64,000 nt of DNA from Escherichia coli (GCF_024223415.1 NZ_CP100500.1); one strand, 5' to 3'. Counted from the stretch's first letter, positions 4,966 through 64,000 are shown. Notes: generated by a model not told the origin, from the letters alone. Translations and numbers: made by a program.

Positions 4966-5072
4966 TCTGTCGTTTATACCGGATAGCGTGGAGAAGTTCG
5001 CGCTATCCGGCGTAGTATTTCCTGGCTATTTCAAATATCATCTAAAAAAATCAAATTTTATCGGAATAGCTC

Positions 5073-5828
5073 ATGACTGAAGCACAAAGACATCAAATCC
5101 TCCTGGAAATGCTCGCACAATTGGGCTTTGTGACCGTTGAGAAAGTCGTTGAGCGTCTGGGAATTTCGCCTGCCACTGCGCGACGCGATATCAATAAACT
5201 TGACGAAAGCGGCAAACTGAAAAAAGTGCGCAATGGCGCAGAAGCTATTACCCAACAGCGCCCGCGCTGGACGCCGATGAATCTGCATCAGGCGCAGAAT
5301 CACGATGAAAAAGTACGTATCGCTAAAGCGGCCTCGCAGCTGGTTAATCCGGGCGAAAGCGTAGTCATCAACTGCGGCTCCACCGCGTTTCTGCTTGGGC
5401 GGGAAATGTGTGGCAAGCCAGTGCAAATCATCACTAATTATCTACCGCTGGCAAATTACCTGATCGATCAAGAACATGACAGCGTGATCATTATGGGCGG
5501 ACAGTACAACAAAAGTCAGTCCATCACTTTAAGCCCGCAGGGCAGCGAAAATAGTCTTTATGCCGGGCACTGGATGTTTACCAGCGGCAAAGGACTGACC
5601 GCAGAAGGGTTGTATAAAACCGATATGCTGACGGCAATGGCAGAGCAGAAGATGCTGAGCGTGGTAGGGAAACTGGTGGTACTGGTTGATAGCAGTAAGA
5701 TTGGCGAACGCGCGGGAATGCTTTTTAGCCGTGCCGATCAAATCGATATGCTTATCACCGGCAAAAATGCTAACCCGGAAATCCTGCAACAACTGGAAGC
5801 GCAAGGGGTCAGCATTCTGCGTGTTTAA
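5073..5828 (+). CDS. ulaR: DeoR-family repressor of the ula regulon UlaR
   Basis: ORF 251 aa [43 protein letters not shown] (HTH) plus sugar-phosphate-binding C-domain. Confidence 0.93.
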
Positions 5829-6574
5829 AGATGCTGGCGGAAAAATGTCACGGCAGCATCTAACGCCTCAGGCGTAATGCGGTGACGCACGCCTGGCTGC
5901 CATGAACAGGTTAGCAGTTTATCCCGTCCCGTCTCGCTTAAGGCCTGCTGCAAACGTAGTGATTCATCGGCAGGCACAACGTCATCGTCGAGGCCATGCC
6001 ACAGCAGTAGAGGTCTGTCCCCAAGTTGTTCCAGGTGGTTTGTCGCTTCCCACTCTGCCAGCGGCGCGACAATGTTATTGAATTCATTCTGCTGTGCTGC
6101 CGTTTCAGGTATCAGCGGTGGAAACAGTGAACGGGCGAGTGATGTAAAATAGCCCGATCCCATCATGCTGGCGGTACATCTCACCGTGGGGTGCCGAGCG
6201 GTAATCCCCAGTGCCGTCATCGCGCCCATCGACGCGCCACCGACTGCAAGACGGTCATCAAGCAGCCAGTTTTCTTCGGCTATTGCCGCACGTAAAGTAG
6301 TGAATTCCTGCATACTTTGTAGCAAGATTTGCCAGAATTGATTTAACCGCCGCGCTGCGTCGCCACTAAAACGACTACCGTGATCGGGCGCATCCGGCAT
6401 GATCACCCGCAAACCAGCCTGCGCCAGCGCAACGGCAAAATAGCTATACACCAGACTGGACGAAGTAAAGCCGTGATAAAAAATCACGCACGGTAACGGG
6501 GTATCTTTTTGTCCGACAGGATAAGCATGAAGAACGGGAATATCTGCCAGCTCGCGTGATTCTATTTCAATCAT
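5825..6574 (-). CDS. yjfP: alpha/beta-hydrolase esterase YjfP
   Basis: ORF 249 aa [36 protein letters not shown]..., GxSxG-type motif GGASMGA. Confidence 0.9.
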
Positions 6575-6755
6575 CTGTCTCTCCTTTTTGTCTGGTATGA
6601 CATGAAGAAATCCTTAGCACAAGTTTCTGCTGGCGGTATTAGTTCATAATGTTGAGATGTGGGTTACGCTTTCGTCACGTTTTCATTCGAAAATCGCGTA
6701 CCAGGTAACAATTCGGGAACATTCCCCCAAAGTTAAATTAATAAGGCACTACACT

Positions 6756-7085
6756 ATGGTTAGCAGGAAACGTAATAGCGTTATTTACCGGTTTGCCAGT
6801 TTATTATTGGTGTTGATGTTAAGTGCCTGTAGCGCACTGCAAGGTACGCCACAGCCAGCACCGCCAGTAACGGACCATCCGCAAGAGATTCGCCGCGACC
6901 AGACGCAAGGGTTACAGCGAATAGGTAGCGTAAGCACGATGGTTCGGGGTTCTCCGGATGACGCATTAGCAGAAATCAGAGCGAAAGCTGTCGCTGCAAA
7001 AGCTGATTATTACGTTGTCGTCATGGTGGACGAAACCATCGTGACAGGACAGTGGTATTCACAAGCCATTTTGTACCGTAAATAA
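6756..7085 (+). CDS. bsmA: biofilm stress/motility lipoprotein BsmA (DUF1471)
   Basis: ORF 6657..7085 trimmed to MVSRKRNSVIYRFASLLLVLMLSACS (lipobox LSAC), 109 aa. Confidence 0.85.
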   Translation: MVSRKRNSVIYRFASLLLVLMLSACSALQGTPQPAPPVTDHPQEIRRDQTQGLQRIGSVSTMVRGSPDDALAEIRAKAVAAKADYYVVVMVDETIVTGQWYSQAILYRK

Positions 7086-7233
7086 ATCAGACAACTTACA
7101 TAGTCAGCTTTACATTGCTTTGCGTCCCTATGCGTTTACCTGTGCACAATAAATTACCGGCTGGAAGCCTGGGCGTTTATTACCGCGATGGAATGCCCTG
7201 CAACATGTGGGGAAATGAAAAATGGAGCTGACG

Positions 7234-7509
7234 ATGAAACAATTACTTGCCTCACCCTCGCTGCAATTAGTGACTTATCCTGCGAGCGCCACGGCACAGT
7301 CTGCAGAATTCGCCAGTGCTGACTGCGTGACGGGCCTTAATGAAATAGGTCAGATCTCAGTTAGCAATATTTCAGGGGATCCGCAGGACGTGGAACGTAT
7401 CGTGGCGTTAAAGGCCGATGAACAAGGTGCGTCATGGTACCGCATTATTACCATGTACGAAGACCAGCAGCCTGATAACTGGCGCGTACAGGCGATACTG
7501 TATGCATGA
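7234..7509 (+). CDS. yjfN: DUF1471-family small secreted protein YjfN
   Basis: ORF 7222..7509 trimmed to MKQLLASPSLQLVTYPASA..., 91 aa, C-terminal YdgH/BhsA-like domain. Confidence 0.8.
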   Translation: MKQLLASPSLQLVTYPASATAQSAEFASADCVTGLNEIGQISVSNISGDPQDVERIVALKADEQGASWYRIITMYEDQQPDNWRVQAILYA

Positions 7510-7533
7510 GTGTCATCTACAGCAAATGAACAA

Positions 7534-7568
7534 TGCCGGATGCGGCGCGAGCGCCTTGTCCGGCCTAC
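7534..7568. repeat. REP (repetitive extragenic palindrome) unit between convergent yjfN and aidB
   Basis: tgccggatgcggcgcgagcgccttgtccggcctaca has the GCCGGATG...CCGGC REP signature. Confidence 0.5.
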
Positions 7569-7625
7569 AATTTTCACATATTTCATTGAGTTAATCGAAA
7601 CCAGCGTCGCATCAGTCGTATACGC

Positions 7626-9251
7626 TTACACACACACTCCCCCCGTCGCCCGCAGCAATAAATCATTCTGGATCTGCTCTGACAACCGTACGCCGCCGCG
7701 CGTATCTAACATCACCTGACACCACGCCTGCGCCATTGGCGGAGAGGCATATTTCAACATTTGCGCACCGCAGCCCAGCAGGAATAGCTGATGAGTAATC
7801 TCTCGCCCCAGTTCTTCAGCTGGCTTACGCAGCTGCTGCTGTAAACGACGAACCGCGCGATCAAAATAGCGATCCTGCCCTTTCACTTCCACAAATGCTT
7901 CCGACAATAAGTCGTATACGCCCGCTTGCTTATTGAGAACGCGCAACACATCCAGGCACATAATATTGCCGGAACCTTCCCAAATACTGTTTACCGGCAT
8001 CTCCCGGTAAAGCCGCGGCAGCTCGCTCTCCTCGCAATAACCAATGCCGCCCAGCACCTCCATCGCTTCGGCCACAAACGGCATACCTCGTTTGCAGATC
8101 ACAAATTTTGCCGCAGGCGTAAATAAACGCGCCCACAGGGCTTCTTTGGCATCGGCACGCCGGTCCCACGCTCGCGCAAGACGAAACAGCAACGCCGTTT
8201 GCCCTTCAAGCTGAAGTGCCATGCGACTTAAGACATGACGCATAAGGGGCTGTTGGATCAATGGATTACCAAAAACATGGCGTTGATGTGCATGATAAAT
8301 CGCCAGCGAAAATGCACGGCGCATCATGGCATGGCTACCCAGGGCGCAATCAAAACGCGTCATCCCCCCCATTTTCAGGATCAGACGAATTCCTTCCCCT
8401 TCCTGCCCCAATAACCAGCCAATGGCATCCTGAAACTCCACTTCGCAACTGGCGTTAGAGCGATTACCCAGCTTATCTTTCAGCCGCTCGAGGCGAATCG
8501 CGTTGCGTTGCCCGTCAGGCAAAAAGCGCGGCACAAAAAAGCAGGACAGACCGCCCGCGGTCTGCGCCAGCACCAGATGCGCATCGCTTTGCGGCACCGA
8601 GAAAAACCATTTATGCCCCACCAGCCGATAAGCGCCATCTTCCAAACGCTCTGCACGGGTGGTGTTGCTCATGACATCGGAACCGCCCTGCTTTTCCGTC
8701 ATTCCCATGCCAATCAACAAACCGCGTTTTTGCCCACCTGGCAATAAGTGAGAATCGTAGCGATCGCTCAGCAGCGGCGTGGTCCAGTCCTGAAACGGCG
8801 TGGGTAACATCTGTAACAACAATGGCGTAGCGGCAAAGGTCATGGTTATCGGACATAACGACCCAGCCTCAACCTGTGCGTGCAACATAAAACGCGCCGC
8901 GCGCGCCACAAATGCGCCGGAGCGAGCGTCTTCTTCCCAGGCAAGATTGTGCACCCGATTGGTACATAGCGCCTGCATCAGCAGGTGCCAGGCGGGGTGA
9001 AAACGCACATCGTCCAGACGGCGTCCTTGTGCATCGTAGCGCAATAATTCAGGCGGATTCACATTCGCCAGCCGCCCCAGTTCAAGGGATTCAGCCGTTC
9101 CTAACTGCTGACCAATACTGGCTAGAAAATCGCTATCCCAGCCAGCACCTTCACGCGTTACCGCTTCGCAAAGCGCGCCATCAGACAGGTATAAGTTGCT
9201 GTTATTTAATGGTATAGGTTGATTAAAAACGGTGTGAGTTTGCCAGTGCAC
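7626..9251 (-). CDS. aidB: acyl-CoA dehydrogenase-like adaptive-response protein AidB
   Basis: ORF 7626..9269(-) trimmed to GTG start (VHWQTHTVFNQPIPL), 541 aa; ACAD fold. Confidence 0.92.
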   Translation of the reverse strand: MHWQTHTVFNQPIPLNNSNLYLSDGALCEAVTREGAGWDSDFLASIGQQLGTAESLELGRLANVNPPELLRYDAQGRRLDDVRFHPAWHLLMQALCTNRVHNLAWEEDARSGAFVARAARFMLHAQVEAGSLCPITMTFAATPLLLQMLPTPFQDWTTPLLSDRYDSHLLPGGQKRGLLIGMGMTEKQGGSDVMSNTTRAERLEDGAYRLVGHKWFFSVPQSDAHLVLAQTAGGLSCFFVPRFLPDGQRNAIRLERLKDKLGNRSNASCEVEFQDAIGWLLGQEGEGIRLILKMGGMTRFDCALGSHAMMRRAFSLAIYHAHQRHVFGNPLIQQPLMRHVLSRMALQLEGQTALLFRLARAWDRRADAKEALWARLFTPAAKFVICKRGMPFVAEAMEVLGGIGYCEESELPRLYREMPVNSIWEGSGNIMCLDVLRVLNKQAGVYDLLSEAFVEVKGQDRYFDRAVRRLQQQLRKPAEELGREITHQLFLLGCGAQMLKYASPPMAQAWCQVMLDTRGGVRLSEQIQNDLLLRATGGVCV

Positions 9252-9334
9252 TGTGTCTCCCTCCATCAATGGCAGTCACCATTAGTATGGTCACTGCCAT
9301 GGATTCATGACAGAAAGAGATTGCTAAAACATTC

Positions 9335-10498
9335 TTATCCAGCAATGTAATGCGGAACGAAACGTGAGGTGTCTTTGGTGATCAGCGTGTTATCTTCACG
9401 GATCCCCATTCCGCACGCTTCATCATCGACAATCCAGCTACCGATGAGTGTGTAGCTATCGCCAAATCGCGGCAGAGGTTGAAACGCCTGGTAGATCATC
9501 GGTTCATCGGCGTAATCACCATCAGCGTGGTCAACGACGTTATTCTGACCGTCGAAAATGGTGACGTTTCCGCCTTCGCGCGAGTAGATCGGTTTACGCA
9601 CATAGCTTTCGCCAGCGGCAATCTGCGGTTTTTCACCCTCAAACCAGGATGCAAGAAGGTTAGGATGACCAGGGAAGAAGCGCCAAAGCAGCGGCATTAG
9701 CCCTTTATTACTCAAGATACTTTTCCATAACGGCTCCACCCATTGCTCGCGACGCTTGCGCAGCAGCGGACCGTTATCGTCACGCATCATCCACTCCAGC
9801 GGATACAGCTTAAATGCACGCTGGATGACATTATCATCAAGATCGGTCAGTACGCCGCCGACGCCCAAACCGAGATCTTCAATGTAGATAAACCGCGACT
9901 CCTGCCCTGCCTGCTGGGCGCAGTCCTGCAAGTACAGCACGGTACTCCTGTCTTCATCGGTGTCCTGACAGCAGCAAAAATAAAACGGCTCCCGACTGTA
10001 AAGCTCACTAAAGCGCGAAATCAGGCGTTCCTGAATGGCATTGTACTGATCGGCATCACGCGGAATAATGCCGCTGCGCCGGGCATCCTCTAGCCACAAC
10101 CACTGGAAATAAGCCGACTCATACAACGAGGTCGGCGTATCGGCGTTGTACTCCAGCAGCTTCACCGGCGCATTGCCACACCAGGCAAAATCCATCCGGC
10201 CATACAGCGAAGGATCGCGTGCGCGCCAGCTTTCAACGATCACCTCCCAGTACAACGGCGGGATCGCCAGTTGCGTCAGGATCTCTTCGTCTTTAACCGC
10301 GCGATCCACCACCTCAAGGCACATCTGATGCAGTTCCGCAGTCGGTTTTTCGATCTGCTCTTCAATCTGGCGCAGAGTAAAACGGTAAGCCCGACTCTCA
10401 TCCCAATAGATTTCATTGTCGATGATATGAAAGTCGAAACCGTTGTCAGCGGCGATCTGGTCCAGATCCCGTCGCACAGGAACGTTGTGTCTCAGCAT
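9335..10498 (-). CDS. yjfC: glutathionylspermidine-synthase-like ATP-grasp protein YjfC
   Basis: ORF 9335..10513(-) trimmed to MLRHNVPVRRDLDQIAADNG, 387 aa; last gene of yjfI-yjfC cluster. Confidence 0.88.
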   Translation of the reverse strand: MLRHNVPVRRDLDQIAADNGFDFHIIDNEIYWDESRAYRFTLRQIEEQIEKPTAELHQMCLEVVDRAVKDEEILTQLAIPPLYWEVIVESWRARDPSLYGRMDFAWCGNAPVKLLEYNADTPTSLYESAYFQWLWLEDARRSGIIPRDADQYNAIQERLISRFSELYSREPFYFCCCQDTDEDRSTVLYLQDCAQQAGQESRFIYIEDLGLGVGGVLTDLDDNVIQRAFKLYPLEWMMRDDNGPLLRKRREQWVEPLWKSILSNKGLMPLLWRFFPGHPNLLASWFEGEKPQIAAGESYVRKPIYSREGGNVTIFDGQNNVVDHADGDYADEPMIYQAFQPLPRFGDSYTLIGSWIVDDEACGMGIREDNTLITKDTSRFVPHYIAG

Positions 10499-10500
10499 GG

Positions 10501-11139
10501 TTAGCCTCCCCAATGCCCACGGGCGCTGGAAGAACGACCATAGCCGCCGCGCGAAACGGTCGACGCTTTTCTGGTGGTAAAGCCGCCTGAAGAGTAAGAC
10601 TCTTTTTTGCCAGAACCGGAGCGCCAGGAGTAATCACCAGAAGTGTTGCGCCAGACGGGGCGCGAAGCAAAAGAGGAACCGCCGCTGTTATAAACAAACT
10701 GCTCATCGCGATCTTTACGAATAACCCGGCTTAACAAAAATCCAGAAACGACCGGGATCCAACTCTGTTCAACGTTGTCGTAGTAGCAATTTTCGTACTT
10801 AGACTGACAATTCTGCTGAGTCATATTCTTCGGAACATCGGCATAAAATGCTGCTTTGGCGTTGTTCCAGCCACGCGCGCAAATGTCGGCATTATTACCG
10901 TCATCAATACAATCCTGCACAGTCGAGTAAAACGTTCCGTCGCCGTCGTTATCGACATCGCTACTTTCACTCCATCCTTTGACTATTAAAAAAGCGGCAC
11001 CGCCCATTAGCGCCAACGTTAAGTATTTTTGTGCGTAGCGATTGCGACGCGGTTCAAAAGGATTATTCGGTCTACCAATGCGACTGATCGCTCCGTGACC
11101 AATTTTACTGTTATTTCTTGATTTGCGTTTTCTGGCCAT
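10501..11139 (-). CDS. yjfM: DUF1190 protein YjfM (Gly/Ser/Arg-rich C-terminus)
   Basis: ORF 212 aa MARKRKSRNNSKIGHGAISRIG... with one TM segment and low-complexity tail. Confidence 0.85.
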   Translation of the reverse strand: MARKRKSRNNSKIGHGAISRIGRPNNPFEPRRNRYAQKYLTLALMGGAAFLIVKGWSESSDVDNDGDGTFYSTVQDCIDDGNNADICARGWNNAKAAFYADVPKNMTQQNCQSKYENCYYDNVEQSWIPVVSGFLLSRVIRKDRDEQFVYNSGGSSFASRPVWRNTSGDYSWRSGSGKKESYSSGGFTTRKASTVSRGGYGRSSSARGHWGG

Positions 11140-11148
11140 GATCGTCCA

Positions 11149-11547
11149 TTACCATGTCATACAAGCTGCGTTAAAAATACCGCCAGCCAGCGCGGCGGTT
11201 CCCATAAACATTCCTGCTGCGGTATTGTGATTAATAATTTTTTCGCTTAATGCGGGCATATAAAGTCTGACACCAGCAAAAACGAGTAACTGAATCACCA
11301 GTGCAATCCCGCCCCAGGCGAAATAGTCTGGAATACTCACCGCATTGATTGCCGCACTGGATAAGGGGATCACGTAACCCAACAATGTACCGCTGAACGC
11401 CAGTGACGCTGCGGTATTATTGTTTTTGATTAATTGCCATTCATTGTGCGGTGTAATTTTGGAGTAGATAAACAGAAAAATAATCACCATCGCCACGCCA
11501 ATAAAAAAATAGGCACTAAAGGCAAGAAGTGAATCCAGTATATGCAT
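11149..11547 (-). CDS. yjfL: DUF350 inner-membrane protein YjfL
   Basis: ORF 11149..11628(-) trimmed to MHILDSLLAFSAYFFIGVAMVIIF, 132 aa, 4 predicted TM helices. Confidence 0.8.
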   Translation of the reverse strand: MHILDSLLAFSAYFFIGVAMVIIFLFIYSKITPHNEWQLIKNNNTAASLAFSGTLLGYVIPLSSAAINAVSIPDYFAWGGIALVIQLLVFAGVRLYMPALSEKIINHNTAAGMFMGTAALAGGIFNAACMTW

Positions 11548-11564
11548 TGTATACGTCCTTGTAA

Positions 11565-12224
11565 TTAACCAATAATATGAAGTGATGTCAGCGGGATATC
11601 GACACCCAACGCGCGCGAAAATAACCACTCTGGCTCACCGAGATCGTTAAAAGATTCCTCACCATTTAGCAGCAAATATTCGTAAGTATCTTCGGTCACT
11701 TGCCGCTGGTAGCCCATGGTAAAATTATGGACTTCCCATTTAGCATGATTTTGATTTTCTACTTTTTCCAGCATGTAGACGGGTTCGATATTTCCCGGTT
11801 CTTCGCTGTTAAAAAATCGCTGCCAGCGTTTTTCCTGCCAGTTTAAGGTCATTGCCCCCATCGTTTTGGCGTTGATCGCCTCGCGCCAGTGACTCTCTTT
11901 ACTGATACCGTAGCTCTCTTCATAGACAAAGAGCTTGATATCATCAATGTCATCAATATCTTCGCCGCCGGTGGTATTGATTTGCAGAAACTCATCGCCT
12001 GAAGTGTAGTAGCGGAAAATCTGGCTACCGCCGCCCAGATCGATGTGACTGACAGCGGCTACCGTAAATTCCTCACCCGGCAGCGCAATCAGCAATTCAT
12101 CTTCCAGCAAACGAAACGCTAACGTGTCGAGCGTAAAGCCACTATTGAGATGAAGTCCCAGCGGACCGCGAGCGATAGCAGGCTTATTATCCTTGCCAAA
12201 CAGACGCTGGAAAAAACCAGACAT
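11565..12224 (-). CDS. yjfK: DUF2491 protein YjfK
   Basis: ORF 219 aa MSGFFQRLFGKDNKPAIARGPLGLHLNSGF... Confidence 0.85.
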   Translation of the reverse strand: MSGFFQRLFGKDNKPAIARGPLGLHLNSGFTLDTLAFRLLEDELLIALPGEEFTVAAVSHIDLGGGSQIFRYYTSGDEFLQINTTGGEDIDDIDDIKLFVYEESYGISKESHWREAINAKTMGAMTLNWQEKRWQRFFNSEEPGNIEPVYMLEKVENQNHAKWEVHNFTMGYQRQVTEDTYEYLLLNGEESFNDLGEPEWLFSRALGVDIPLTSLHIIG

Positions 12225-12274
12225 ATTTTATCCTTAAAATAGTTGCCAGCCTTGCAGTGAGGCTGGCAAAAAAA

Positions 12275-12973
12275 TTACTCGCCCTGTTGGCGTTGCAGTC
12301 TTGCTAATACATCCTGGGCGCTACTTTTATTGCTACCGCCAATTCCGGCTTCCGCCAGCTTTTCGTCAAGGTCGCGACCGTCTGCGACTTTCTCCAACTG
12401 TGCGGCAGCATCCAGGCGAGCCTGACGTTCGGCCTGACGCGTTTGCAGGCGTTTTAAGGATTCTGCCGCTGTCGAAACGCTGGAAGATGCGCCAACGGTA
12501 GAGGTTGTTACAGCCTGTTGTGCACGCTGCATGGCTTCAGTGGCTTTAACGACTTCCATTTGCTGCTCAAACTGAGCGATACGCTGCGCTGTCGCTGTAA
12601 CTGCTTTTTCCACGCCATCACGGGAGACTTCCAGATTCGACAACACTTGCTCTTCAGCGGTAATGAGATTCTCAAGGCGCGCGATTTCTTCAGCAACTTC
12701 GTTAATCAACGACGGATTAACGTTCTTGCTTAACGCTTCCAGCGCACGGGCTTCCAGACTGGCTTTGCGCTCACGTAAATCTTTCAGCTTATCGTGACTT
12801 AATTTCACCCGCGCCAGCAGATCAACGCGAGATTTTCCGGCTTTATCGAGTTCAGCTTTAGCGTCACGAATATGCTGTTCCAGCATGCGCACACCCTGGG
12901 TTTCTTCAATGGACTCTTCCGCCTGGGAGATAAACGATTTCCCCAGCGTAAATAAACTTTTTAAAATTCCCAT
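12275..12973 (-). CDS. yjfJ: PspA/IM30-family coiled-coil protein YjfJ
   Basis: ORF 232 aa MGILKSLFTLGKSFISQAEESIEETQGVRMLEQHIRDAKAELDKAGKSR..., heptad-rich like PspA/Vipp1. Confidence 0.88.
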   Translation of the reverse strand: MGILKSLFTLGKSFISQAEESIEETQGVRMLEQHIRDAKAELDKAGKSRVDLLARVKLSHDKLKDLRERKASLEARALEALSKNVNPSLINEVAEEIARLENLITAEEQVLSNLEVSRDGVEKAVTATAQRIAQFEQQMEVVKATEAMQRAQQAVTTSTVGASSSVSTAAESLKRLQTRQAERQARLDAAAQLEKVADGRDLDEKLAEAGIGGSNKSSAQDVLARLQRQQGE

Positions 12974-20229: not shown

Positions 20230-21489
20230 TTATTCCCCCTGACGCTGGTAGTCGTTACGCTGCGCATTGGCGCGGCGTTGGTCCATAATATCGCCCTGAC
20301 TGGTGGACGACGTGTTGCTTGCTCCACTGGTTGTGGAGGAAGAGGCTGGCGGCAGACGCAGCAGATTGCTGGCACCGTTATCGCTCTTCGCCGCAGGGGC
20401 GTTACCACCTTTCAGCATCTGGTCTAACGGCAGAACCATCAGGTTGCCACCTTTATCGTTAACCAGCACTTTGCGGGTGTTACCCAACACTTTTTCCATC
20501 GTCTCGATATACAGACGCTCGCGAGTAATTTCCGGCGCGGCTTTATATTCCGGCAGAAGTTTAGCAAAACGCGCCACTTCACCCTGAGCTTCCAGGATGG
20601 TCTGGGCCTTGTACGCACGCGCCTCTTCGAGGATACGTTGCGCCTGACCGTTCGCACGCGGCTGAACTTCGTTGGTATACGCTTCTGCTTCACGAATGTA
20701 TTGCTGTTCGTTTTCACGCGCGGCAATCGCATCGTCAAACGCCGCTTTTACTTCTTCCGGCGGACGAGCAGCCTGGAAGTTGACGTCCAGCAGCGTGATA
20801 CCCATGTCATACGGACGAATCGTCTCTTCCAGTTCGCGCTGAGTATCGCTACGAATCACGGTACGACCTTCCGTCAGAATGCGGTCCATGGTGTATTTAC
20901 CGATAACTCCACGCAGGGCGCTGTCGGTAGCCTGACGCAGGCTGTCATCCGGGCTGGTCACGCTATACAGATATTTTTCCGGATTGGTGACGCGGTACTG
21001 CACGTTCATCTCAACGCGCACTACGTTCTCGTCCGACGTCAGCATCACACCAGAAGCTGCCAGTTCACGCACGGCTTCCACGTTCACCGGTTTGACTTCG
21101 TCGATAAACGTCGGTTTCCAGTTCAGACCTGGCTCAACCAGATGGCTGAATTTACCAAAGCGTGTTACCACGCCGCGTTCGGCTTCTTTAATGGTATAGA
21201 AACCACTGGCCGCCCAGATAATGACAATCGCTGCCGCTGCGATGGTAACGACACGACCGCCAAGCTGCGGGCGCGGGCCTTGCGATGAACTGCCACCGCC
21301 AGATCCGGTGCCTTTACCGCCGCCCAGACCACCGAGCTTTTTGCTCAGTTTGCGGAAGATATCATCTAAATCAGGTGGCCCTTGATCGCGACCGCCTTTG
21401 TTTCCATTTCCCTCAGAGTTGCCGCCAGGTTTGCTGCTTCCCCACGGGTCGCGGTCTTGTCCGTTATTACCGGGCTGATTCCACGCCAT
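20230..21489 (-). CDS. hflK: FtsH modulator HflK (SPFH/band-7)
   Basis: ORF 419 aa MAWNQPGNNGQDRDPWGSSKPGG..., Gly-rich N-terminus then band-7 domain. Confidence 0.93.
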   Translation of the reverse strand: MAWNQPGNNGQDRDPWGSSKPGGNSEGNGNKGGRDQGPPDLDDIFRKLSKKLGGLGGGKGTGSGGGSSSQGPRPQLGGRVVTIAAAAIVIIWAASGFYTIKEAERGVVTRFGKFSHLVEPGLNWKPTFIDEVKPVNVEAVRELAASGVMLTSDENVVRVEMNVQYRVTNPEKYLYSVTSPDDSLRQATDSALRGVIGKYTMDRILTEGRTVIRSDTQRELEETIRPYDMGITLLDVNFQAARPPEEVKAAFDDAIAARENEQQYIREAEAYTNEVQPRANGQAQRILEEARAYKAQTILEAQGEVARFAKLLPEYKAAPEITRERLYIETMEKVLGNTRKVLVNDKGGNLMVLPLDQMLKGGNAPAAKSDNGASNLLRLPPASSSTTSGASNTSSTSQGDIMDQRRANAQRNDYQRQGE

Positions 21490-21574
21490 GTTTGTGCTCC
21501 ATATTTGTTATGCGGTGATCCCTGTTGTCTTTCGACGCCAGAGGATATGACTCCACGCTTCAGACGCTACGCCG

Positions 21575-22855
21575 TTAGATCAGGTAATCGATCAACGCCG
21601 GTTCTTGTTTACAGAGGCGACGCCAGTCAACGATCGGCATACGAACTTGCAGACTTACGCTGCCGTCCTCCTCCATCCACTCTTTTTCTATTGCCTGAAG
21701 CTGATAAAAACGACTTCTCAGACGCCCTTCCTGCGGTGGCAGACGCAATGTATGCTGCGCCACCTCGCCGGAAAGCCGCTCCGTCAAAGCCTGAAAAAGC
21801 TGTGGTATCCCCGCTCCGGTCTGTGCGGAAAGCCAGACACGGATCGGTTTGTTCTCTTCGTCCCGATCAATACGCGGTTCGAAATCTTCCAGCATATCGA
21901 TCTTGTTCATCACCAGCAGGGTTGGGATCTCGTGAGCGTCGATCTCTTCAAGAACCGTATTCACCGCTTCGATGTTTTCTTGTACACGCACATCCGCCGC
22001 ATCAATCACATGCAGCAGCAATGTGGCTTGCCGCGTCTCTTGTAACGTGGCTTTAAATGCTGCCACCAGATCGTGCGGCAGGTGGCGAATAAACCCTACG
22101 GTATCTGCAAGTACGGTTTCACCGACATCTGCAACGTCAATACGCCGCAACGTCGGGTCGAGGGTGGCAAACAACTGGTCTGCCGCGTAGACCCGCGCTT
22201 CGGTGATGCGATTGAAAAGGGTAGATTTACCGGCGTTGGTATATCCCACCAGCGAAACAGTAGGAACGTCGGCTTTGATACGCGATTGCCGCCCCTGCTC
22301 ACGCTGCTTTTCAACTCTTTCCAGGCGCGACTGTATCTGCACGATGCGATTACGCAACAAACGACGGTCGGTTTCGAGCTGGGTTTCACCCGGACCACGC
22401 AAACCAATCCCGCCTTTCTGTCTTTCAAGGTGGGTCCAGCCACGCACCAGGCGTGTAGCCAGATGGCGCAGCTGCGCCAGCTCAACCTGCAACTTACCCT
22501 CATGGGTACGCGCACGTTGGGCGAAAATATCTAAAATAAGGCCGGTGCGGTCGATAACACGACACTCGCACAAACGCTCCAGGTTACGCTCTTGCGCCGG
22601 GCTCAGGGCATGGTCAAAAAGAACGACCGAAGCACCCGTCGCTTTGACAGCTTCCGCAATTTCAACTGCTTTACCTTCACCTACAAAATACTTTGGGTGC
22701 GGCGCTTTACGGCTACCGGTAATCACCTGCAATGCTTCGACACCGGCGGAAGAGACCAGAGATTCAAACTCCTGGAGGTCTTCCATATCTTTGTCTTGCG
22801 TAAAATAGATGTGTACCAGTACCGCCTGCTCACCAGCATCATAACGGTCAAACAA
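21575..22855 (-). CDS. hflX: ribosome-associated GTPase HflX
   Basis: ORF 426 aa [30 protein letters not shown]..., G1 motif GYTNAGKST. Confidence 0.93.
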
Positions 22856-24276: not shown

Positions 24277-26116
24277 CTTTCAGGGCTTTTATCGCCGGAT
24301 GTAAATCAACAGATTGTAACAGACCACCCGGCGGCGTTTTCACAAGTTGCGGACATAACCGTTCCACGTCCGCCAGCAGGGTTATGGCCTGTGCCATTGA
24401 CCACTGCGCATGTTCGCTCATCAGATTTCGTGCAATCCACTGCGCAATATTGCCAGGTTCGAATACGGACTGCTTCGCCAGGTAGCCTATCAGTTCAGGA
24501 ATCAAGATTTGTAAATTTTGTTGGCGTAAGGGTAAAGGCACGGCCCTGATGGTCACATGCTGTGCATCTGACTGGAAATCAATACCCAATTCCGCCAGGG
24601 CAGACTGCGCTTTTTCTAATGCCGATTTTTCTTCGCCAGAAACTTTTAGCCGCAACGGAATAAGCAGCGGCTGGGCGCAAACGGGCGCTTCACCCGGCGT
24701 CAGTTGCGCCTGACGCAGCCAACGTTCTGCCACTGGCAAGGCTAAAAGTGAAATGTTGCCGTCGCGCTCCAGCAACGCACAGTCGGAATGGACGATAGTC
24801 AGTACCCGACCAAAACTCTGACTGTTCGCCGCAAGTGCAGGTTCCTGCGGTTCTGGCGCTTTTGGTTTTTGCATCGGCGCGGGCGTTTGCAAAAGCTGGC
24901 GATACACTTCACCTTGCTGTTTCTGGTAACCTGGCTGCGCATTCGGCCAGGGGGCAGCCGGACGACTGCCTGAGGCGGGCGCAGGAGTGTAACGCGGAGC
25001 TACCGGCTCACGAGCTGCCGGTTCAGCAAAATGATTGCGCCCCGCCGCCACGCGGTTTTCCGGAATAGCACGCGGTGCAGGTTGGGGTTCATCGTCCAGC
25101 GGTAGCGGCGTTTCCAGCTGCTGTTGTAGCACGCTCAGCACGCCCTGATAGATAAAGTCATGCACCAGACGCGACTGATGAAAACGCACTTCGTGTTTGG
25201 CGGGGTGCACGTTAACGTCCACCTGATGCGGGTCGATCTCCAGATACAACACAAATGCCGGTTGCTGATCGGCCCCCAGTTTGTCTTCGCAGGCCTGGCG
25301 GATCGCGTGATTGATCAGGCGATCGCGCATCATGCGACCGTTCACGTAGCAATACTGAATTTCTGCCAGGGCGGGCGTGGTGTGATTCGGATCGGCCACC
25401 CAGCCGCGCAGGGTGAGATCGCCGTGTTGCCATTCAATCGCCAGCGCTTGTTCGAGAAAAGCGGTGCCGCAAATCGCGCCTAAGCGCCGTTCTTTTTGCC
25501 CGCCTTCCGGCACTGCACGGTACTGACGCACAATTTTACCGTTATGCGACAGGTTGATCGTGACGTCGAAACGCGCCAGCGCAATGCGGCGGATGATTTC
25601 ATCGATATGGTTAAATTCAGTTTTCTCGGTGCGCAGGAATTTGCGCCGCGCCGGGGTGTTGTAGAACAGATCCAGCACCTCCAGCGTCGTTCCCACCGGA
25701 TGCGCCGCCGGTTTAACCGTCACGTCCATATCGCGCCCTTCGGCATAGGCCTGCCAGGCTTCCTGCTGTTCTGCGGTGCGTGAAGTGAGCGTCAGGCGGG
25801 AAACCGAACTGATACTCGCCAGCGCCTCACCGCGAAAGCCCAGGCTGATAATGGCTTCGAGATCGTCCAGAGAGGCGATTTTACTGGTGGCATGACGAGC
25901 CAGCGCCAGCGCCAGCTCATCTTTTTTGATACCGCAGCCGTTATCACGAATGCGGATAAGTTTCGCCCCACCGCGTTCGATATCAATATCGATACGCGTC
26001 GCACCTGCATCGAGGCTGTTTTCCACCAGTTCTTTGACTACCGACGCAGGTCGCTCGACCACCTCACCTGCGGCAATCTGGTTCGCCAGTTGTGGCGGTA
26101 AGACCTGAATTGGCAT
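24269..26116 (-). CDS. mutL: DNA mismatch repair protein MutL
   Basis: ORF 24269..26119(-) trimmed to [40 protein letters not shown] (GHKL ATPase), 615 aa; overlaps miaA start by 8 nt. Confidence 0.93.
25899..25916 (-). repeat. three tandem GCTGGC hexamers inside mutL (coding LALALA)
   Basis: plus strand gccagc gccagc gccagc; encodes ELALALARH in the MutL ATPase domain. Confidence 0.8.
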
Positions 26117-26125
26117 CAATCGTCC

Positions 26126-27463
26126 TTAGTTTGGCAGCGTGCGATCTGGCGTCGTCACCGTACTGGCAGTTTGTGCCGTTGCACCCTGCGGCGCAGATTG
26201 CATCGGATGCGCAAGGAAATAATTGCGCAGGCCTTTGTAAATGGCTTCTGCCAGCTGTTGTTGGTAATCGTCGCTCGCCAGCAAACGTTCTTCGCTGTTG
26301 TTGCTGATAAAACCGGTTTCGACCAGTACTGATGGGATATCCGGCGAACGCAGAACGCCAAGGCTGGCGTGTTCTGGTCGACGTTTATGAATTTCGCCAA
26401 TGCGTTGCAACTGACTGATCATACTGGTCGCTACATCATACCCTACCCGCTGGGAATGACCGAACTGTAAATCCAGCACCGCCTGGCTTAAATAGGGGTC
26501 AGACTGACTGTTCGCCAGTACATCGCCCGCTCCGCCCAGTAGCTCTGACTGTTTCTCGTGCTGCTCCAGCCAGCTGGCCATTTCGCTGTTGGCGCGACGG
26601 TTAGAGAGCACCCATACGGAAGCGCCAGTCGCACTGCGGTTCGGTGCGGCATCAGCGTGAATCGACACGAGGAAATTGGCGTTTTGCTTACGTGCCACAT
26701 CGCTGCGCCCCATCACCGAGATAAAGTAATCCCCGTCACGGGTTAAAACGCCTTTAAACATCGGATCGTCATTGAGCAAAGTACGCAATTTACGCGCGAT
26801 GGCGATGGTGACATTTTTCTCCCGCGTACCACCGGGGCCGATAGCGCCAGGGTCCTGACCGCCGTGTCCGGCATCAATAGCGATGATAATTTTATCGCCA
26901 GTGTTAGCCGTCGCGCGCGCTGCCGGACGCGTTACCGTATTACTGCTGATAACACCCGTAGTGCGGTTACTTTCCGTTTTAAACGGATTGCGCGCCGGTT
27001 CGCTGACGCGCGGTGCGACAACCGTAGGCGTTTCAACGCGTTTCGCAACCACAGGCGGCGGAGGAGGCGGTGGCGGCGCATCGGCGTTAATCGTAAAGAC
27101 AACAGTGTAATTGCTGCCATTCTGCCGCTTCACCGCTTCGGTTTTACCATTTTCGGTAAGATCAACCACCAGCCGTAGCGTTTGTGCATCTTTAGGCGTT
27201 CCGGAGCGAATCGCCTTCACCAGATTATTACCGCTGAACAACAACGGCAGTCCCTGAATCACGCCCGTTTGTTTGATATCGAGCGCCACGGTGCGTTTGC
27301 TTTGATGGCTAAACGCATAATCAGGATCGCCAATAAAACTCAACGTTATCCGCGCCTGTTGGTTGCCGTTAGAAACCTGAATATCAGAGAGCGTCGCGGC
27401 ACCCACCTGCGCGCACAGCAGCAGCAACGTCGCTACCAACCAATTTCTGATGCGATACATCAT
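26126..27463 (-). CDS. amiB: N-acetylmuramoyl-L-alanine amidase AmiB
   Basis: ORF 26126..27478(-) trimmed to [23 protein letters not shown] (signal peptide), 445 aa; poly-Pro linker and Amidase_3 domain. Confidence 0.92.
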
Positions 27464-27481
27464 CCCGCCACCTTTCAAAGG

Positions 27482-29460
<1,979 letters not shown>

Positions 29461-59614: not shown

Positions 59615-60190
59615 GTGCAACGTGAAGATGTACTGGGAGAAGCCCTGAAATTATTAGAATTACAAGGGATTGCCTACACCACGCTGGAGATGGTTGCTGA
59701 ACGTGTGGATTATCCACTGGACGAGCTGCGCCGCTTCTGGCCAGACAAAGAGGCAATCCTCTACGATGCGCTGCGTTATCTTAGCCAACAGATAGATGTC
59801 TGGCGTCGTCAGCTGATGCTGGACGAAACGCAAACCGCCGAACAAAAGCTGCTGGCACGTTATCAGGCGTTATCGGAGTGCGTTAAAAACAACCGCTATC
59901 CGGGCTGTCTATTTATCGCTGCCTGTACGTTTTATCCCGATCCTGGCCACCCTATTCATCAACTGGCCGATCAGCAAAAAAGCGCGGCCTACGATTTCAC
60001 CCACGAACTGTTAACCACGTTGGAAGTTGACGATCCGGCGATGGTAGCAAAGCAGATGGAACTGGTGCTGGAAGGCTGTTTAAGCCGAATGCTGGTAAAT
60101 CGTAGCCAGGCGGATGTCGACACTGCACATCGGCTGGCGGAAGATATCCTGCGCTTCGCCCGCTGCCGCCAGGGTGGCGCATTGACCTGA
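59615..60190 (+). CDS. yjdC: TetR-family transcriptional regulator YjdC
   Basis: ORF 59591..60190 trimmed to GTG start ([31 protein letters not shown]), 191 aa. Confidence 0.88.
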
Positions 60191-60296
60191 CAGAAACACA
60201 GAAAAGAAGCGATTTGCCGCAATCTTAAGCAGTTGAATCGCTTTTACTGAAATTAGGTTGACGAGATGTGCAGATTACGGTTTAATGCGCCCCGTT

Positions 60297-60372
60297 GCCC
60301 GGATAGCTCAGTCGGTAGAGCAGGGGATTGAAAATCCCCGTGTCCTTGGTTCGATTCCGAGTCCGGGCACCA
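60297..60372 (+). tRNA. pheU: tRNA-Phe (anticodon GAA)
   Basis: GCCCGGATAGCTCAGTCGGTAGAGCAGGGGATTGAAAATCCCCGTGTCCTTGGTTCGATTCCGAGTCCGGGCACCA; cloverleaf, GAA anticodon, encoded CCA. Confidence 0.95.
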
Positions 60373-60382
60373 AATTCATATA

Positions 60383-60409
60383 AACGGACCTCCACGGAGG
60401 TCCGTTTTT
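60383..60409 (+). terminator. intrinsic terminator of pheU
   Basis: cggacctcc-acgg-aggtccg hairpin followed by TTTTT, 10 nt after the tRNA CCA end. Confidence 0.6.
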
Positions 60410-60569
60410 CGTTTCAGGACGCCACGATTTAAGCGTCCTGCCGCCAAATCAATTCTACCGAACTCAACCAGACTCCCCCCACATCAACCCCATTGTGTGG
60501 GTATAATTGCGGGTATACCCCAGTTCGACAGAATTTGTACCCTCTTTAACGCATTCAGAAGGCTGAACT

Positions 60570-61832
60570 ATGGCACTGACTGACGCAAAAATCCGGGCTG
60601 CAAAGCACACTGACAAGGCTTATAAACTCACTGACGGGGCTGGCATGTTCCTGCTGGTACATCCTAATGGTTCCCGTTACTGGCGTCTCCGTTATCGCAT
60701 TCTGGGTAAGGAGAAAACTCTGGCACTTGGTGTATACCCGGAGGTTTCTCTCTCCGAAGCTCGTACAAAACGGGATGAGGCCCGAAAACTGATTTCGGAG
60801 GGGATTGACCCTTGCGAACAGAAAAGAGCTAAAAAAGTAGTCCCTGATTTACAACTCTCTTTTGAACATATTGCACGACGCTGGCATGCCAGTAATAAAC
60901 AATGGGCACAATCACACAGCGATAAGGTACTCAAAAGCCTCGAAACACACGTTTTCCCCTTTATCGGCAACCGGAACATCACAACACTCAATACCCCGGA
61001 CCTGCTTATCCCTGTTCGTGCTGCAGAAGCTAAACAAATTTATGAAATCGCCAGTCGTCTGCAGCAAAGAATATCTGCTGTAATGCGTTATGCCGTACAG
61101 TCTGGCATCATCAGATATAATCCTGCTCTGGATATGGCTGGCGCATTGACTACGGTAAAACGCCAGCATCGCCCCGCTCTTGATCTTTCTCGCCTGCCTG
61201 AACTTTTGTCGCGTATTGGCAGTTACAAGGGGCAACCTGTCACCCAGCTTGCCGTTATGCTGAATTTACTGGTTTTTATTCGTTCCAGTGAACTCAGATA
61301 CGCCCGCTGGTCTGAAATTGATATTGACAATGCCATGTGGACTATTCCAGCCGAACGCGAACCCCTGCCAGGCGTAAAATTCTCACACCGGGGCTCCAAG
61401 ATGCGAACACCACATCTTGTGCCACTCAGCAAACAGGCTGTAGCCATACTGACAGAACTACAGACATGGGCTGGTGAAAATGGTCTGATCTTTACGGGAG
61501 CACATGACCCGCGTAAACCAATCAGTGAAAATACTGTAAATAAAGCCCTGAGGGTGATGGGGTATGACACAACCCAGGATGTCTGTGGCCATGGATTCCG
61601 GGCGATGGCGTGCAGTGCATTGATTGAATCAGGTTTGTGGTCCCGCGATGCTGTGGAACGTCAGATGAGCCATCAGGAGCGTAATGGTGTACGTGCTGCG
61701 TATATCCATAAAGCAGAACATCTGGAAGAACGTCGACTGATGCTACAGTGGTGGGCAGATTTTCTGGATGCGAACAGAGATAAGGGTATCAGCCCGTTTG
61801 AATATGCAAAGATTAACAATCCATTAAAATAG
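60570..61832 (+). CDS. P4-type tyrosine recombinase (genomic-island integrase)
   Basis: ORF 420 aa MALTDAKIRAAKHTDKAYKLTDGAGMFLLVHPNGSRYWRLRYR..., Arm-binding N-terminus typical of P4-like Int; catalytic HGFR and downstream Tyr (RAAYIH) present; ~200 bp from tRNA-Phe 3' end. Confidence 0.9.
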   Translation: MALTDAKIRAAKHTDKAYKLTDGAGMFLLVHPNGSRYWRLRYRILGKEKTLALGVYPEVSLSEARTKRDEARKLISEGIDPCEQKRAKKVVPDLQLSFEHIARRWHASNKQWAQSHSDKVLKSLETHVFPFIGNRNITTLNTPDLLIPVRAAEAKQIYEIASRLQQRISAVMRYAVQSGIIRYNPALDMAGALTTVKRQHRPALDLSRLPELLSRIGSYKGQPVTQLAVMLNLLVFIRSSELRYARWSEIDIDNAMWTIPAEREPLPGVKFSHRGSKMRTPHLVPLSKQAVAILTELQTWAGENGLIFTGAHDPRKPISENTVNKALRVMGYDTTQDVCGHGFRAMACSALIESGLWSRDAVERQMSHQERNGVRAAYIHKAEHLEERRLMLQWWADFLDANRDKGISPFEYAKINNPLK

Positions 61833-61835
61833 TAA

Positions 61836-61880
61836 GCAGTCCGGGCTGATTGCCCGGACTGCTTTAACTGATTATTTTTC
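61836..61880 (+). terminator. putative intrinsic terminator after integrase gene
   Basis: gcagtccgggc-tgat-tgcccggactgc hairpin followed by a T-rich tract. Confidence 0.45.
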
Positions 61881-62097
61881 TTTGTAAATGATGACGAAGA
61901 TTGATGTTCTGGCAAGTTACTCCGGCTTCCATTAAAGTCCCTTCGTCATGTTCTTCAGGCTATTTATGACTGTGATTAGCACCAGGAATATCTGGTTTCC
62001 ATGAGAGCAGGTAATAACCCCCGGTGTTTTCGGCTGTTCTGGTATCCTTGTCCAACACAGGCAGTCATTATAAACGGTAAAAAATGTGGATTTGCCC

Positions 62098-63003
62098 CTA
62101 TATTTCCAGACATCTGTTATCACTTAACCCATTACAGGCCCGCTGCCGCAGATATTCCCGTGGCGAGCGATAACCCAACGCACTATGCGGATGCCATTCG
62201 TTATAATGCTCGAACGCCTCTGCAAGGTTCTTTGCTGCCGTTAACCCGTCTGGTTTGGGCATGACACTGATGTAGTCACGCTTTATCGTTTTCACGAAGC
62301 TCTCTGCTATGCCGTTACTCTCCGGACTCCGCACCGCCGTGTTCTTCGGTTCAAGCCCCAACATCCGGGCAAACTGCCGTGTTTCATTAGCCCGGTAGCA
62401 TGAACCATTATCCGTCAGCCACTCTACTGGAGACGCCGGAAGCTCGTTGCCGAAGCGGCGTTCCACCGCTCCTGGCATGACGTCCTGTACTGTTTCACTG
62501 TTGAAGCCGCCCGTAGTGACCGCCCAGTGCAGTGCCTCACGGTCACAGCAGTCCAGCGCGAACGTGACTCGCAGTTTTTCTCCGTTATCACAGCGGAACT
62601 CGAACCCGTCAGAGCACCATCGCTGATTACTTTCTTTCACAGCCACTCTGCCGGTATGTGCCCGTTTCGATGGCGGTACAGCGGTTTTTCGCTCAAGCAA
62701 CAGCGCATTCTGGCGCATGATCCGGTAAATACGTTTGGCATTGATCGCAGGCATACCATCAAGTTCTGTTTGTCTGCGAAGCAGCGCCCATACCCGACAA
62801 TAACCATATGTGGGTAGCTCTCCGATAACATGGTGTATACGGCGAAGCACATCCGTATCATCCGTGTGACGGCTGCGGCGGCCGTCCTTCCAGTCATCGG
62901 CTCGTCTGAGAATGACGTGCAACTGCGCACGCGACACCCGGAGACAACGGCTGACGAAGCTTACTCCCCATCCCCGGGCAATAAGGGCGCGTGCGCTATC
63001 CAC
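62098..63003 (-). CDS. insD: IS2 transposase OrfB (DDE integrase domain)
   Basis: ORF 301 aa [34 protein letters not shown]..., recognised as IS2 InsD. Confidence 0.92.
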
Positions 63004-63326
63004 TTTTTTGCTCGCCCATATTCAACGGCTTCTTTAAGGAGTTCATTTTCCATCGTTTTTTTGCCGAGCAGACGCTGGAGTTCTTTAATCTGCTTCATGG
63101 CGGCAGCAAGTTCAGAGGCAGGAACGACCTGTTCTCCGGCAGCCACAGCAGTAAGACTTCCCTCCTGGTATTGCTTACGCCAGAGAAATAGCTGGCTGGC
63201 TGCCACACCATGTTGCCGGGCAACAAGGGAGACCGTCATTCCCGGTTCAAAGCTCTGCTGAACGATAGCGATCTTTTCCTGTGTAGTACGCCGTCTGCGT
63301 TTCTCCGGCCCTAAGACATCAATCAT
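62961..63326 (-). CDS. insC: IS2 transposase OrfA (HTH)
   Basis: ORF 62961..63371(-) trimmed to [41 protein letters not shown], 121 aa; overlaps insD in the -1 frame. Confidence 0.9.
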
Positions 63327-63543
63327 CTGTTCTCCAATGACTAGTCTAAAAACTAGTATTAAGACTATCACTTATTTAAGTGATATTGGTTGTCTGGAGA
63401 TTCAGGGGGCCAGTCTAAAATGTATTCACTGTTATGAAATCAATAGTTCTGACGTACTGTTGAATGTGCTTGCGTTCTGAACCTTGTACAACCAGTACAT
63501 TTGATACCGAATTATAAACAAAACATTGCATCCAACTTTTTCA

Positions 63544-63566
63544 ATATGGACAATAGTTGTCCATAT
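63544..63566. promoter_or_regulatory. perfect 10-3-10 palindrome (ATATGGACAA-TAG-TTGTCCATAT), candidate operator upstream of the cargo ORF
   Basis: read directly from sequence ~55 bp upstream of the ATG at 63620, inside an AT-rich leader. Confidence 0.4.
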
Positions 63567-63619
63567 GGTGGTTTTATATTCGATAAATCAATGGATTTCA
63601 TTGAGTCATAGGACTGGTA

Positions 63620-64000
63620 ATGGATGAAAATGCTTTAGGGTTTGCCTCATACTGGCGCAACTCGCTTGCGGATGCTGAGTCAGGAAAGGGCAGTTTTGAA
63701 CGGAAAGACGCCAAAAATTTCACTCATTGGCATGGGATAGCGGCGGGACGTCTTGACGAAGCGATTGTCAGTAAATTTTTTAAGGGAGAAAAAGACGATG
63801 TCGAAACGGTCGATGTCATCTTGCGCCCAAAAGTTTATTTCCGGTTACTGCAGCATGGTAAGGACCGTTCTGCAGGTGCGCCTGATATTGTTACCCCGAT
63901 AGTGACGCCAGCCTTGCTAAGCCGTGAGGGTTTTTTATATCCGACGCCAGCGACCTCCATTCCCAGAGACCTGCTTGAACCTTTGCCAAAAGGAGCATTT
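63620..64000 (+). CDS. island cargo gene of unknown function (first 127 codons only; continues beyond window)
   Basis: open frame from ATG 63620 to the window end with no stop: MDENALGFASYWRNSLADAESGKGSFERKDAKNFTHWHGIAAGRLDEAIVSKFFKGEKDDVETVDVILRPKVYFRLLQHG...; not in ORF track because it is unterminated; I do not recognise the family. Confidence 0.5.
   Translation, partial: MDENALGFASYWRNSLADAESGKGSFERKDAKNFTHWHGIAAGRLDEAIVSKFFKGEKDDVETVDVILRPKVYFRLLQHGKDRSAGAPDIVTPIVTPALLSREGFLYPTPATSIPRDLLEPLPKGAF

Follow-up and report, generated by a model that had tools for sequence, protein, structure and literature searches.

IS2 is a member of the IS3 family and moves by a copy-out-paste-in pathway via a minicircle. 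Under the ISfinder isoform rule, a copy sharing at least 95% nucleotide identity with the reference element is an isoform of it. The IRR end contains an outward-facing -35 box that makes hybrid promoters (PMC9330008, PMC3299598), and a weak promoter, P_IRL, reads inward from the IRL end (PMC3299598, PMC9330008). IS2 fusion promoters have been documented at ampC, acrEF and neoR (PMC9330008); at ampC, as related in the same source, the IRR supplies a -35 box located 17 bp from the resident -10 (Jaurin & Normark 1983). IS positions 39-51 have been described as holding the OrfA operator and the beginning of the extended -10 of P_IRL (PMC3299598). Another close parallel to the locus studied here is IS2K of Escherichia coli K-12, an IS2 copy located in the KpLE2 island at leuX, 240 bp after the intB pseudogene. 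Finally, Mokosh type II has been defined as an anti-phage gene (Millman et al. 2022 preprint, 10.1101/2022.05.11.491447).

The locus reported here belongs to a stretch of 64,000 nucleotides from an E. coli genome (GCF_024223415.1, NZ_CP100500.1), hereafter called the window. It contains a tRNA-Phe island in which a complete IS2 separates a P4-type integrase gene (int) from the first cargo gene (Table 1); the original prediction had likewise placed the IS2 between integrase and cargo. The genes found upstream of the tRNA, dsbD and then dicD/yjdC, correspond to the pheU locus. As in other tRNA islands with P4-type integrases, a tyrosine recombinase with an N-terminal Arm-DNA-bind_3 domain is encoded directly downstream of the tRNA gene. 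It is annotated as WP_077521113.1 in E41, AR_0085, GPEC1031 and Br_112, and the int DNA of the window is identical to that of the first three. The hairpin found directly after the int stop codon is predicted to fold at -28.6 and -27.5 kcal/mol (z about -7, both strands) and may be a bidirectional terminator that insulates int from the spacer. It is bordered by an A-rich tract (5') and a T-rich tract (3'). Beyond the IS2, the GC content of positions 63423-63622 is 33.5%.

Table 1. Features of the integrase-IS2-mkoC locus, in window coordinates
Feature	Position	Strand	Basis or remark
tRNA-Phe (GAA), pheU copy, island attachment site	60297..60372	+	ARAGORN; Rfam tRNA 68.3 bits; flanking genes in AR_0085 and Br_112
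P4-type tyrosine integrase, 420 aa, intact	60570..61832	+	Pfam Arm-DNA-bind_3, Phage_int_M, Phage_integrase
GC-rich hairpin, 13-bp stem, terminator-like	61834..61864	. (flagged on -)	Repeat search; terminator scan; folding
AAATG, left copy of the target-site duplication	62082..62086	.	Sequence reading; single in the empty site
IS2, complete, 1331 bp	62087..63417	-	Script check of the sequence; NCBIfam IS2 models
IRR, 41 bp per PMC3299598, donor end with outward -35, toward the integrase	62087..62127	-	Sequence; inverted-repeat search; PMC3299598, PMC9330008
orfB (InsD, DDE catalytic part), 301 codons, open	62098..63003	-	Pfam rve, rve_3, HTH_21
orfA (InsC, repressor / DNA-binding part), 121 aa	62961..63326	-	Pfam HTH_Tnp_1
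A6G (AAAAAAG) programmed -1 frameshift site, IS positions 409-415	63003..63009	-	Sequence; fused protein built
P_IRL start TGAT, IS positions 48-51, just inside IRL, reading away from mkoC	63367-63370		Sequence compared with PMC3299598
IRL, 42 bp, recipient end, toward mkoC	63376..63417	-	Sequence, in agreement with the description in PMC3299598
AAATG, right copy of the target-site duplication	63418..63422	.	Sequence reading
AT-rich upstream block moving with mkoC across contexts	63475..63619	+	Homology break, query position 307; alignment
Palindrome ATATGGACAATAGTTGTCCATAT, perfect 10-bp arms	63544-63566		54 bp upstream of the mkoC start
TATATT hexamer	63575-63580		In the conserved mkoC upstream block
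mkoC, 5' part, 127 codons, running off the window	63620..64000	+	Visible portion 100% identical to the E41 ortholog

The window had been predicted to carry a full 1331-bp IS2 flanked by identical AAATG pentamers, and the sequence agrees with this to the base: the interval 62082-63422 is made up of exactly the IS2 and both copies of the duplication. The left terminus, starting at 62087, is 5'-TGGATTTGCCCC (IRR) and the right one, ending at 63417, is GGGGGCCAGTCTA-3' (IRL). Both are canonical IS2 termini (IRL 5'-TAGACTGG..., IRR ...GGGGCAAATCCA-3') in reverse orientation on the + strand and identical to the ends of K-12 IS2K; an inverted-repeat search recovered the imperfect 41/42-bp repeats at these ends. 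The 40-mers spanning the junctions read ...GGTAAAAAATG|TGGATTTGCC on the left and CCAGTCTA|AAATGTATTCAC on the right. One additional A matches on each side of the duplication (62081 and the terminal A of the IS2 at 63417), which is a coincidence at the boundary and not a longer duplication. The frequency of AAATG in the window is 0.0014 per position (script count), and its match at both IS2 ends is not explained by chance. No second IS2 copy was found elsewhere within the 64-kb window.

The coding content also corresponds to that of IS2. OrfA is identical to K-12 InsC and OrfB differs from its K-12 counterpart at 14 amino acids. The phase of the frameshift joins ...GRAKK to VDSARAL... and yields a 409-aa OrfAB transposase when the fused protein is built; the transposase CDS is annotated with a 'programmed frameshift' in the RefSeq record of E41, and the label given by RefSeq to the IS2 transposase is 'IS3 family transposase' only. 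The proteins score above the cut-offs of the NCBIfam models for IS2 TnpB (NF006918, 693.9 bits, cut-off 597), IS2 TnpA (NF006928, 238.8 bits, cut-off 229) and the IS3 family (NF033516, 277 bits, cut-off 160). At the nucleotide level, the element is 96.0% identical to K-12 IS2K (53 substitutions, no indels), above the 95% isoform threshold. IS positions 39-51, near the IRL, read TTAAATAAGTGAT and contain the OrfA binding site TTAAATAAGT and the TGAT of P_IRL, as the operator and extended -10 start described for IS2 (PMC3299598). Every defining sequence feature of IS2 is present in this copy, which looks functional, all its known cis and trans components being intact.

The mode of insertion was studied through the search for an IS2-free version of the junction, as the original prediction had suggested. 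The empty site was rebuilt by removing the IS2 and one AAATG from the window sequence and compared with the complete RefSeq E. coli genomes. The junction is uninterrupted, with a single AAATG, in 716 genomes, and the sequence from Br_112_kylling aligns with the rebuilt site along all of its 1265 bp without a break, at 100% identity. The existence of this precise empty site, where AAATG is single, shows that the pentamers are a true target-site duplication and proves that the IS2 got there by simple transposition; the predicted absence of a later rearrangement at its origin is thereby confirmed. The possibility that all related islands carry the same IS2 had also been raised, and most of them turn out to be devoid of it. 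In Br_112, the insertion point falls within a 451-bp spacer that separates int from the next gene and contains zero annotated genes. An Rfam search of positions 60000-64000 for a disrupted non-coding RNA recovered the tRNA alone and nothing in the spacer. No gene is interrupted by the window IS2. A small ORF that spans the empty site (a 37-codon frame from 62001) was considered and set aside, as it is unannotated in the genomes looked at (e.g. Br_112) and has no support.

The occupied AAATG junction was also searched in the complete RefSeq E. coli genomes and was found in three of the ~720 genomes that have the junction: E41, with the full int-IS2-mkoC arrangement at pheV; AR_0085, with the full arrangement at pheU; and GPEC1031, at pheV, where the left junction and the IS2 are followed by another right flank. 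The exact pheU arrangement of the window was absent from the complete RefSeq genomes searched. The insertion had been presumed recent, yet it is not private to the window: pheU and pheV alike harbour the same event, which is found in E41, in AR_0085 and, in rearranged form, in GPEC1031. E41 has zero differences with the window over positions 60279-64000, including all 1331 bp of the IS2; its island is located at pheV, with a yqgA flank, and its homology to the window begins 48 bp before the tRNA. E41 is also the only record in the collection with the window IS2 allele at 100%. This is a minority allele, since 292 of 7777 IS2 records are at least 99% identical to it; IS2 as such is carried by 4924 of the 5426 complete E. 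coli genomes (91%).

The other two occupied junctions carry modified versions of the element. In AR_0085, the flanks of the IS2 are 100% identical to those of the window and the element itself differs at 21 positions, all of them within IS positions 380-1076; positions 517-789 have the alleles found in F829. This central block looks like a gene-conversion tract in an otherwise window-type IS2. The AR_0085 copy spans positions 20688-22018 of the extract of its pheU region. A copy of ISVsa5 links the same pheU island directly to the idnT-leuX region, a join that indicates an IS10-type rearrangement. In GPEC1031, the IS2 is chimeric (extract 8688-10018): its IRR half is of the window type and its IRL half is of the VTB97420v type. 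Its flanks are mismatched, with AAATG on the left and the right flank of VTB97420v (CTACCTGAAG..., CTACC) on the other side; the duplication is absent and mkoC has been lost. This structure arose when two IS2 copies in direct orientation recombined and deleted mkoC, and it is direct evidence that such recombination erodes the defence island.

The comparison of the chromosomal backbones informs on the arrival of the element. Over positions 36000-60299, the window shares 100% identity with SCU-316, NCTC10444 and five other genomes. In SCU-316 and NCTC10444, the two examined, there is no island: pheU is followed only by an integrase remnant of 160 bp, after which comes cadC. The AR_0085 and window backbones are ~98.9% identical. 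According to these comparisons, the integrase-IS2-mkoC island is a recent acquisition in the window lineage and, because pheU is free of islands in the genomes closest to the window in core sequence, we infer that the IS2 probably came in with it. Several scenarios may explain how the same junction came to be occupied in different genomes. On grounds of parsimony, the most economical one would be a single insertion of IS2 in an ancestral island, whose descendants are now found in at least four backgrounds. Alternatively, AAATG could be a target hot spot where the copies of the window and E41, of AR_0085 and of the ancestor of GPEC1031 inserted independently. References given in PMC3299598 describe IS2 insertion as non-random, and further IS2 insertions in the same orientation exist 139 bp upstream of the site (F829) and inside mkoC (VTB97420v). 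In addition, the AR_0085 island is identical to the IS2-free island of Br_112 except for its IS2, which has the 21 differences mentioned above, and the downstream haplotypes of the E41 and AR_0085 islands differ by 5 nt in mkoC and 69 nt over 4.8 kb. Nevertheless, the site, the orientation and the duplication are common to all the copies. Moreover, the AR_0085 copy agrees fully with the minority allele of the window over its outer 503 bp and ~540 bp, its differences are gathered in a single unbroken stretch in the middle that corresponds to a different IS2 allele, as gene conversion predicts, and the IRR half of the GPEC1031 copy is window-type. Independent insertions at a hot spot therefore seem distinctly improbable, and the single insertion is the scenario retained here.

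Other IS2 insertions are found in comparable positions. The F829 copy, at pheV (extract 8552-9882), is flanked by a TCACG duplication (window-equivalent 61946-61950), and ISKpn26 and IS1 stand in place of mkoC in that genome. Two arrangements were considered as the same insertion and rejected. In the leuX islands of the ST131 type, the IS2 that follows the integrase is in the 3' end of a phosphoethanolamine-transferase gene. In K-12, IS2K is at another site, in the opposite orientation and with a CCTTG duplication. The insertions of F829, VTB97420v, the ST131-type leuX islands and K-12 are all independent of the window event. The original prediction had cited the K-12 case as an IS2 directly after a P4-like integrase at leuX, which is correct. 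Like the window element, IS2K follows a P4-type integrase gene at a distance of a few hundred bp, next to a tRNA gene, but its transposase runs in the same direction as intB, opposite to the arrangement of the window, its insertion point is just past the 3' end of yjgX, and the KpLE2 island does not contain mkoC. Moreover, intB is a pseudogene, 67-73% identical to the window integrase gene over the stretches that align. The KpLE2 yjgX, which codes for a phosphoethanolamine transferase, is 91% identical to its counterpart in E41, where this gene comes after mkoC. The pheU/pheV island (extract 25845-28266) and KpLE2 (extract 4094-5292) have in common this gene and an outer-membrane protein gene located downstream. 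Islands at tRNA-Phe and at leuX are thus related modules that occur with or without mkoC.

The cargo gene that follows the IS2 was characterized through its E41 ortholog, a protein of 1171 aa with an SF1 helicase and a PLD nuclease. Its Pfam domains are AAA_11 (residues 272-492), AAA_12 (777-969) and PLDc_2 (1028-1134), and it matches the PADLOC MkoC profile from end to end (1691.7 bits over residues 1-1169). Because of these helicase and PLD domains and of the full-length match to MkoC, the cargo gene is assigned to the Mokosh type II anti-phage genes. It resembles that system in that a single polypeptide combines an N-terminal COG1112/Upf1-like SF1 helicase with a C-terminal PLD nuclease in the E41 ortholog, and differs from it in that the window shows the first 127 codons only; the anti-phage role of this allele is a predicted one. 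In E41 and AR_0085, both of which bear the IS2, mkoC is intact and has not decayed; the AR_0085 gene is identical to that of the IS2-free Br_112.

Homologues of mkoC are also present in other genomic contexts. The leuX-context copies, found in ~200 genomes, are ~94% identical and annotated as intact; they are preceded by genes for an HNH endonuclease and a hypothetical protein. Their homology to the window starts at ~63475. This position precedes the ATG by ~145 bp and lies 53 bp beyond the insertion point. The homology of a selC-context copy (GPEC709) extends further back, to ~62006 in window coordinates. The palindrome ATATGGACAATAGTTGTCCATAT is almost invariant across the pheU, selC and leuX contexts of mkoC. 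At the leuX locus of FDAARGOS_1268 (extract 4593-12759), mkoC is part of an integrase-less defence island, which it shares with a type I R-M system and with genes for a TIR-domain protein, an HNH endonuclease and a restriction endonuclease. From the conservation of the 63475-63619 block, the promoter of mkoC is likely to be found within it. The palindrome located in this block, over the presumed promoter, resembles an operator or else a weak hairpin (-11.2 kcal/mol).

The original prediction had suggested that the IS2 could provide outward transcription into the cargo gene or be polar on it. The orientation of the element bears directly on the first of these effects. With its transposase genes on the - strand, the element runs antisense to int and mkoC, so that the IRR is turned toward the int hairpin and the IRL toward mkoC. 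Because the IRR and its outward -35 box face the integrase, and P_IRL reads away from the cargo, IS2-driven transcription into mkoC is not supported; none of the known IS2 promoters can drive this gene. The situation is comparable to that of ampC in that the same element is likewise inserted upstream of a gene, but in the window the IRR points away from the gene and the IS2 end is 202 bp from the start codon. Transcription reading through the transposase genes would go antisense toward int and meet the hairpin, which was flagged on the - strand. A scan for consensus sigma-70 promoters in the 197-bp spacer, and for hybrid promoters at either end of the IS, found nothing above background.

Insertion sequences can also act on their neighbours in another way, as in the relief from H-NS produced by IS elements at bgl. 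The IS2 could thus have raised mkoC expression, be it through an outward or hybrid promoter or through the displacement of AT-rich silencer DNA upstream, and the resulting variant would have been selected and spread. This would be in line with the IS2 fusion promoters known at ampC, acrEF and neoR (PMC9330008), with the AT-rich spacer next to mkoC and with the four unrelated backgrounds that hold the IS2-bearing island. Yet the end that contains the outward -35 box points away from mkoC and P_IRL reads inward, the distance from the IS end to the ATG is too long for a hybrid -35/-10 with the presumed promoter, the insertion is found in only three of ~720 junction genomes, with no sign of a sweep, and the role of H-NS in this locus is pure speculation. 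An increase in mkoC expression by these routes is extremely improbable.

The second predicted effect, polarity, deserves more attention. Transcription that enters IS2 from the IRR and runs antisense to its genes corresponds to the classically polar 'orientation I', which would be the situation here for any transcript coming from upstream. In that case, mkoC would depend on a promoter located upstream of the insertion or on read-through from int, and the defence gene would now be silenced or reduced. A candidate exists in the form of a TTGTCC-15 nt-TATAAA motif (62048-62074), whose -10-like TATAAA stops 12 bp short of the insertion point and which could be a promoter that is now severed from mkoC. 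The selC-context copy of mkoC in GPEC709 retains this region, as its homology starts at ~62006, and the 197-bp spacer that remains next to mkoC has no strong consensus promoter. The loss or truncation of mkoC in the IS-ridden sister islands of GPEC1031, F829 and VTB97420v also speaks for polarity. Nevertheless, the 15-nt spacing of the motif is suboptimal for a promoter, the -28.6 kcal/mol hairpin stands between int and the spacer, and the mkoC genes of E41 and AR_0085, where the IS2 is present, have not decayed. The gene is also annotated as intact behind unrelated genes in the ~200 leuX genomes, where the ~145 bp before the ATG are the only upstream sequence shared with the window. Since the upstream DNA shared with these leuX copies all lies downstream of the insertion point, polarity is unlikely. 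We infer that the window IS2 is rather likely to be near-neutral for mkoC expression.

Taken as a whole, the explanation that we favor with good confidence is that of a single insertion that spread with its island, hit no gene and probably left mkoC with its promoter. An intact IS2 isoform would have inserted once in the 451-bp int-mkoC spacer of a tRNA-Phe island, duplicating AAATG. This would have taken place in an ancestral copy of the island and the IS2-bearing version would then have entered a number of E. coli backgrounds, at either pheU or pheV, with the window lineage among the recipients. The promoter of mkoC would have remained attached to its gene, in the conserved block of ~145 bp, and the main consequence of the IS2 would be to provide the island with portable homology and a transposition substrate. 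A different reading would make the IS2 a selected regulatory variant of a mobile Mokosh island, altering mkoC expression by substituting the DNA that precedes the AT-rich promoter block and acting through relief from silencing or by blocking read-through, or else make the post-integrase spacer a hot spot for IS2. This appears highly doubtful; were the selected-variant reading true, it would imply the horizontal spread of that variant to at least four E. coli backgrounds and two tRNA-Phe sites.

The window insertion is in itself ordinary and already known, as IS2 is a textbook element and the same insertion is present in RefSeq (E41, AR_0085). This IS2 copy alone is of little importance, and its modest value is that of a marker and a worked example. 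Islands at pheU and pheV in unrelated strains are connected by the identical IS2 allele and junction, a link that indicates a recent horizontal movement of the Mokosh-carrying island. The sister genomes show the later erosion of the island, by gene conversion and by the deletion of the defence gene between two IS2 copies.
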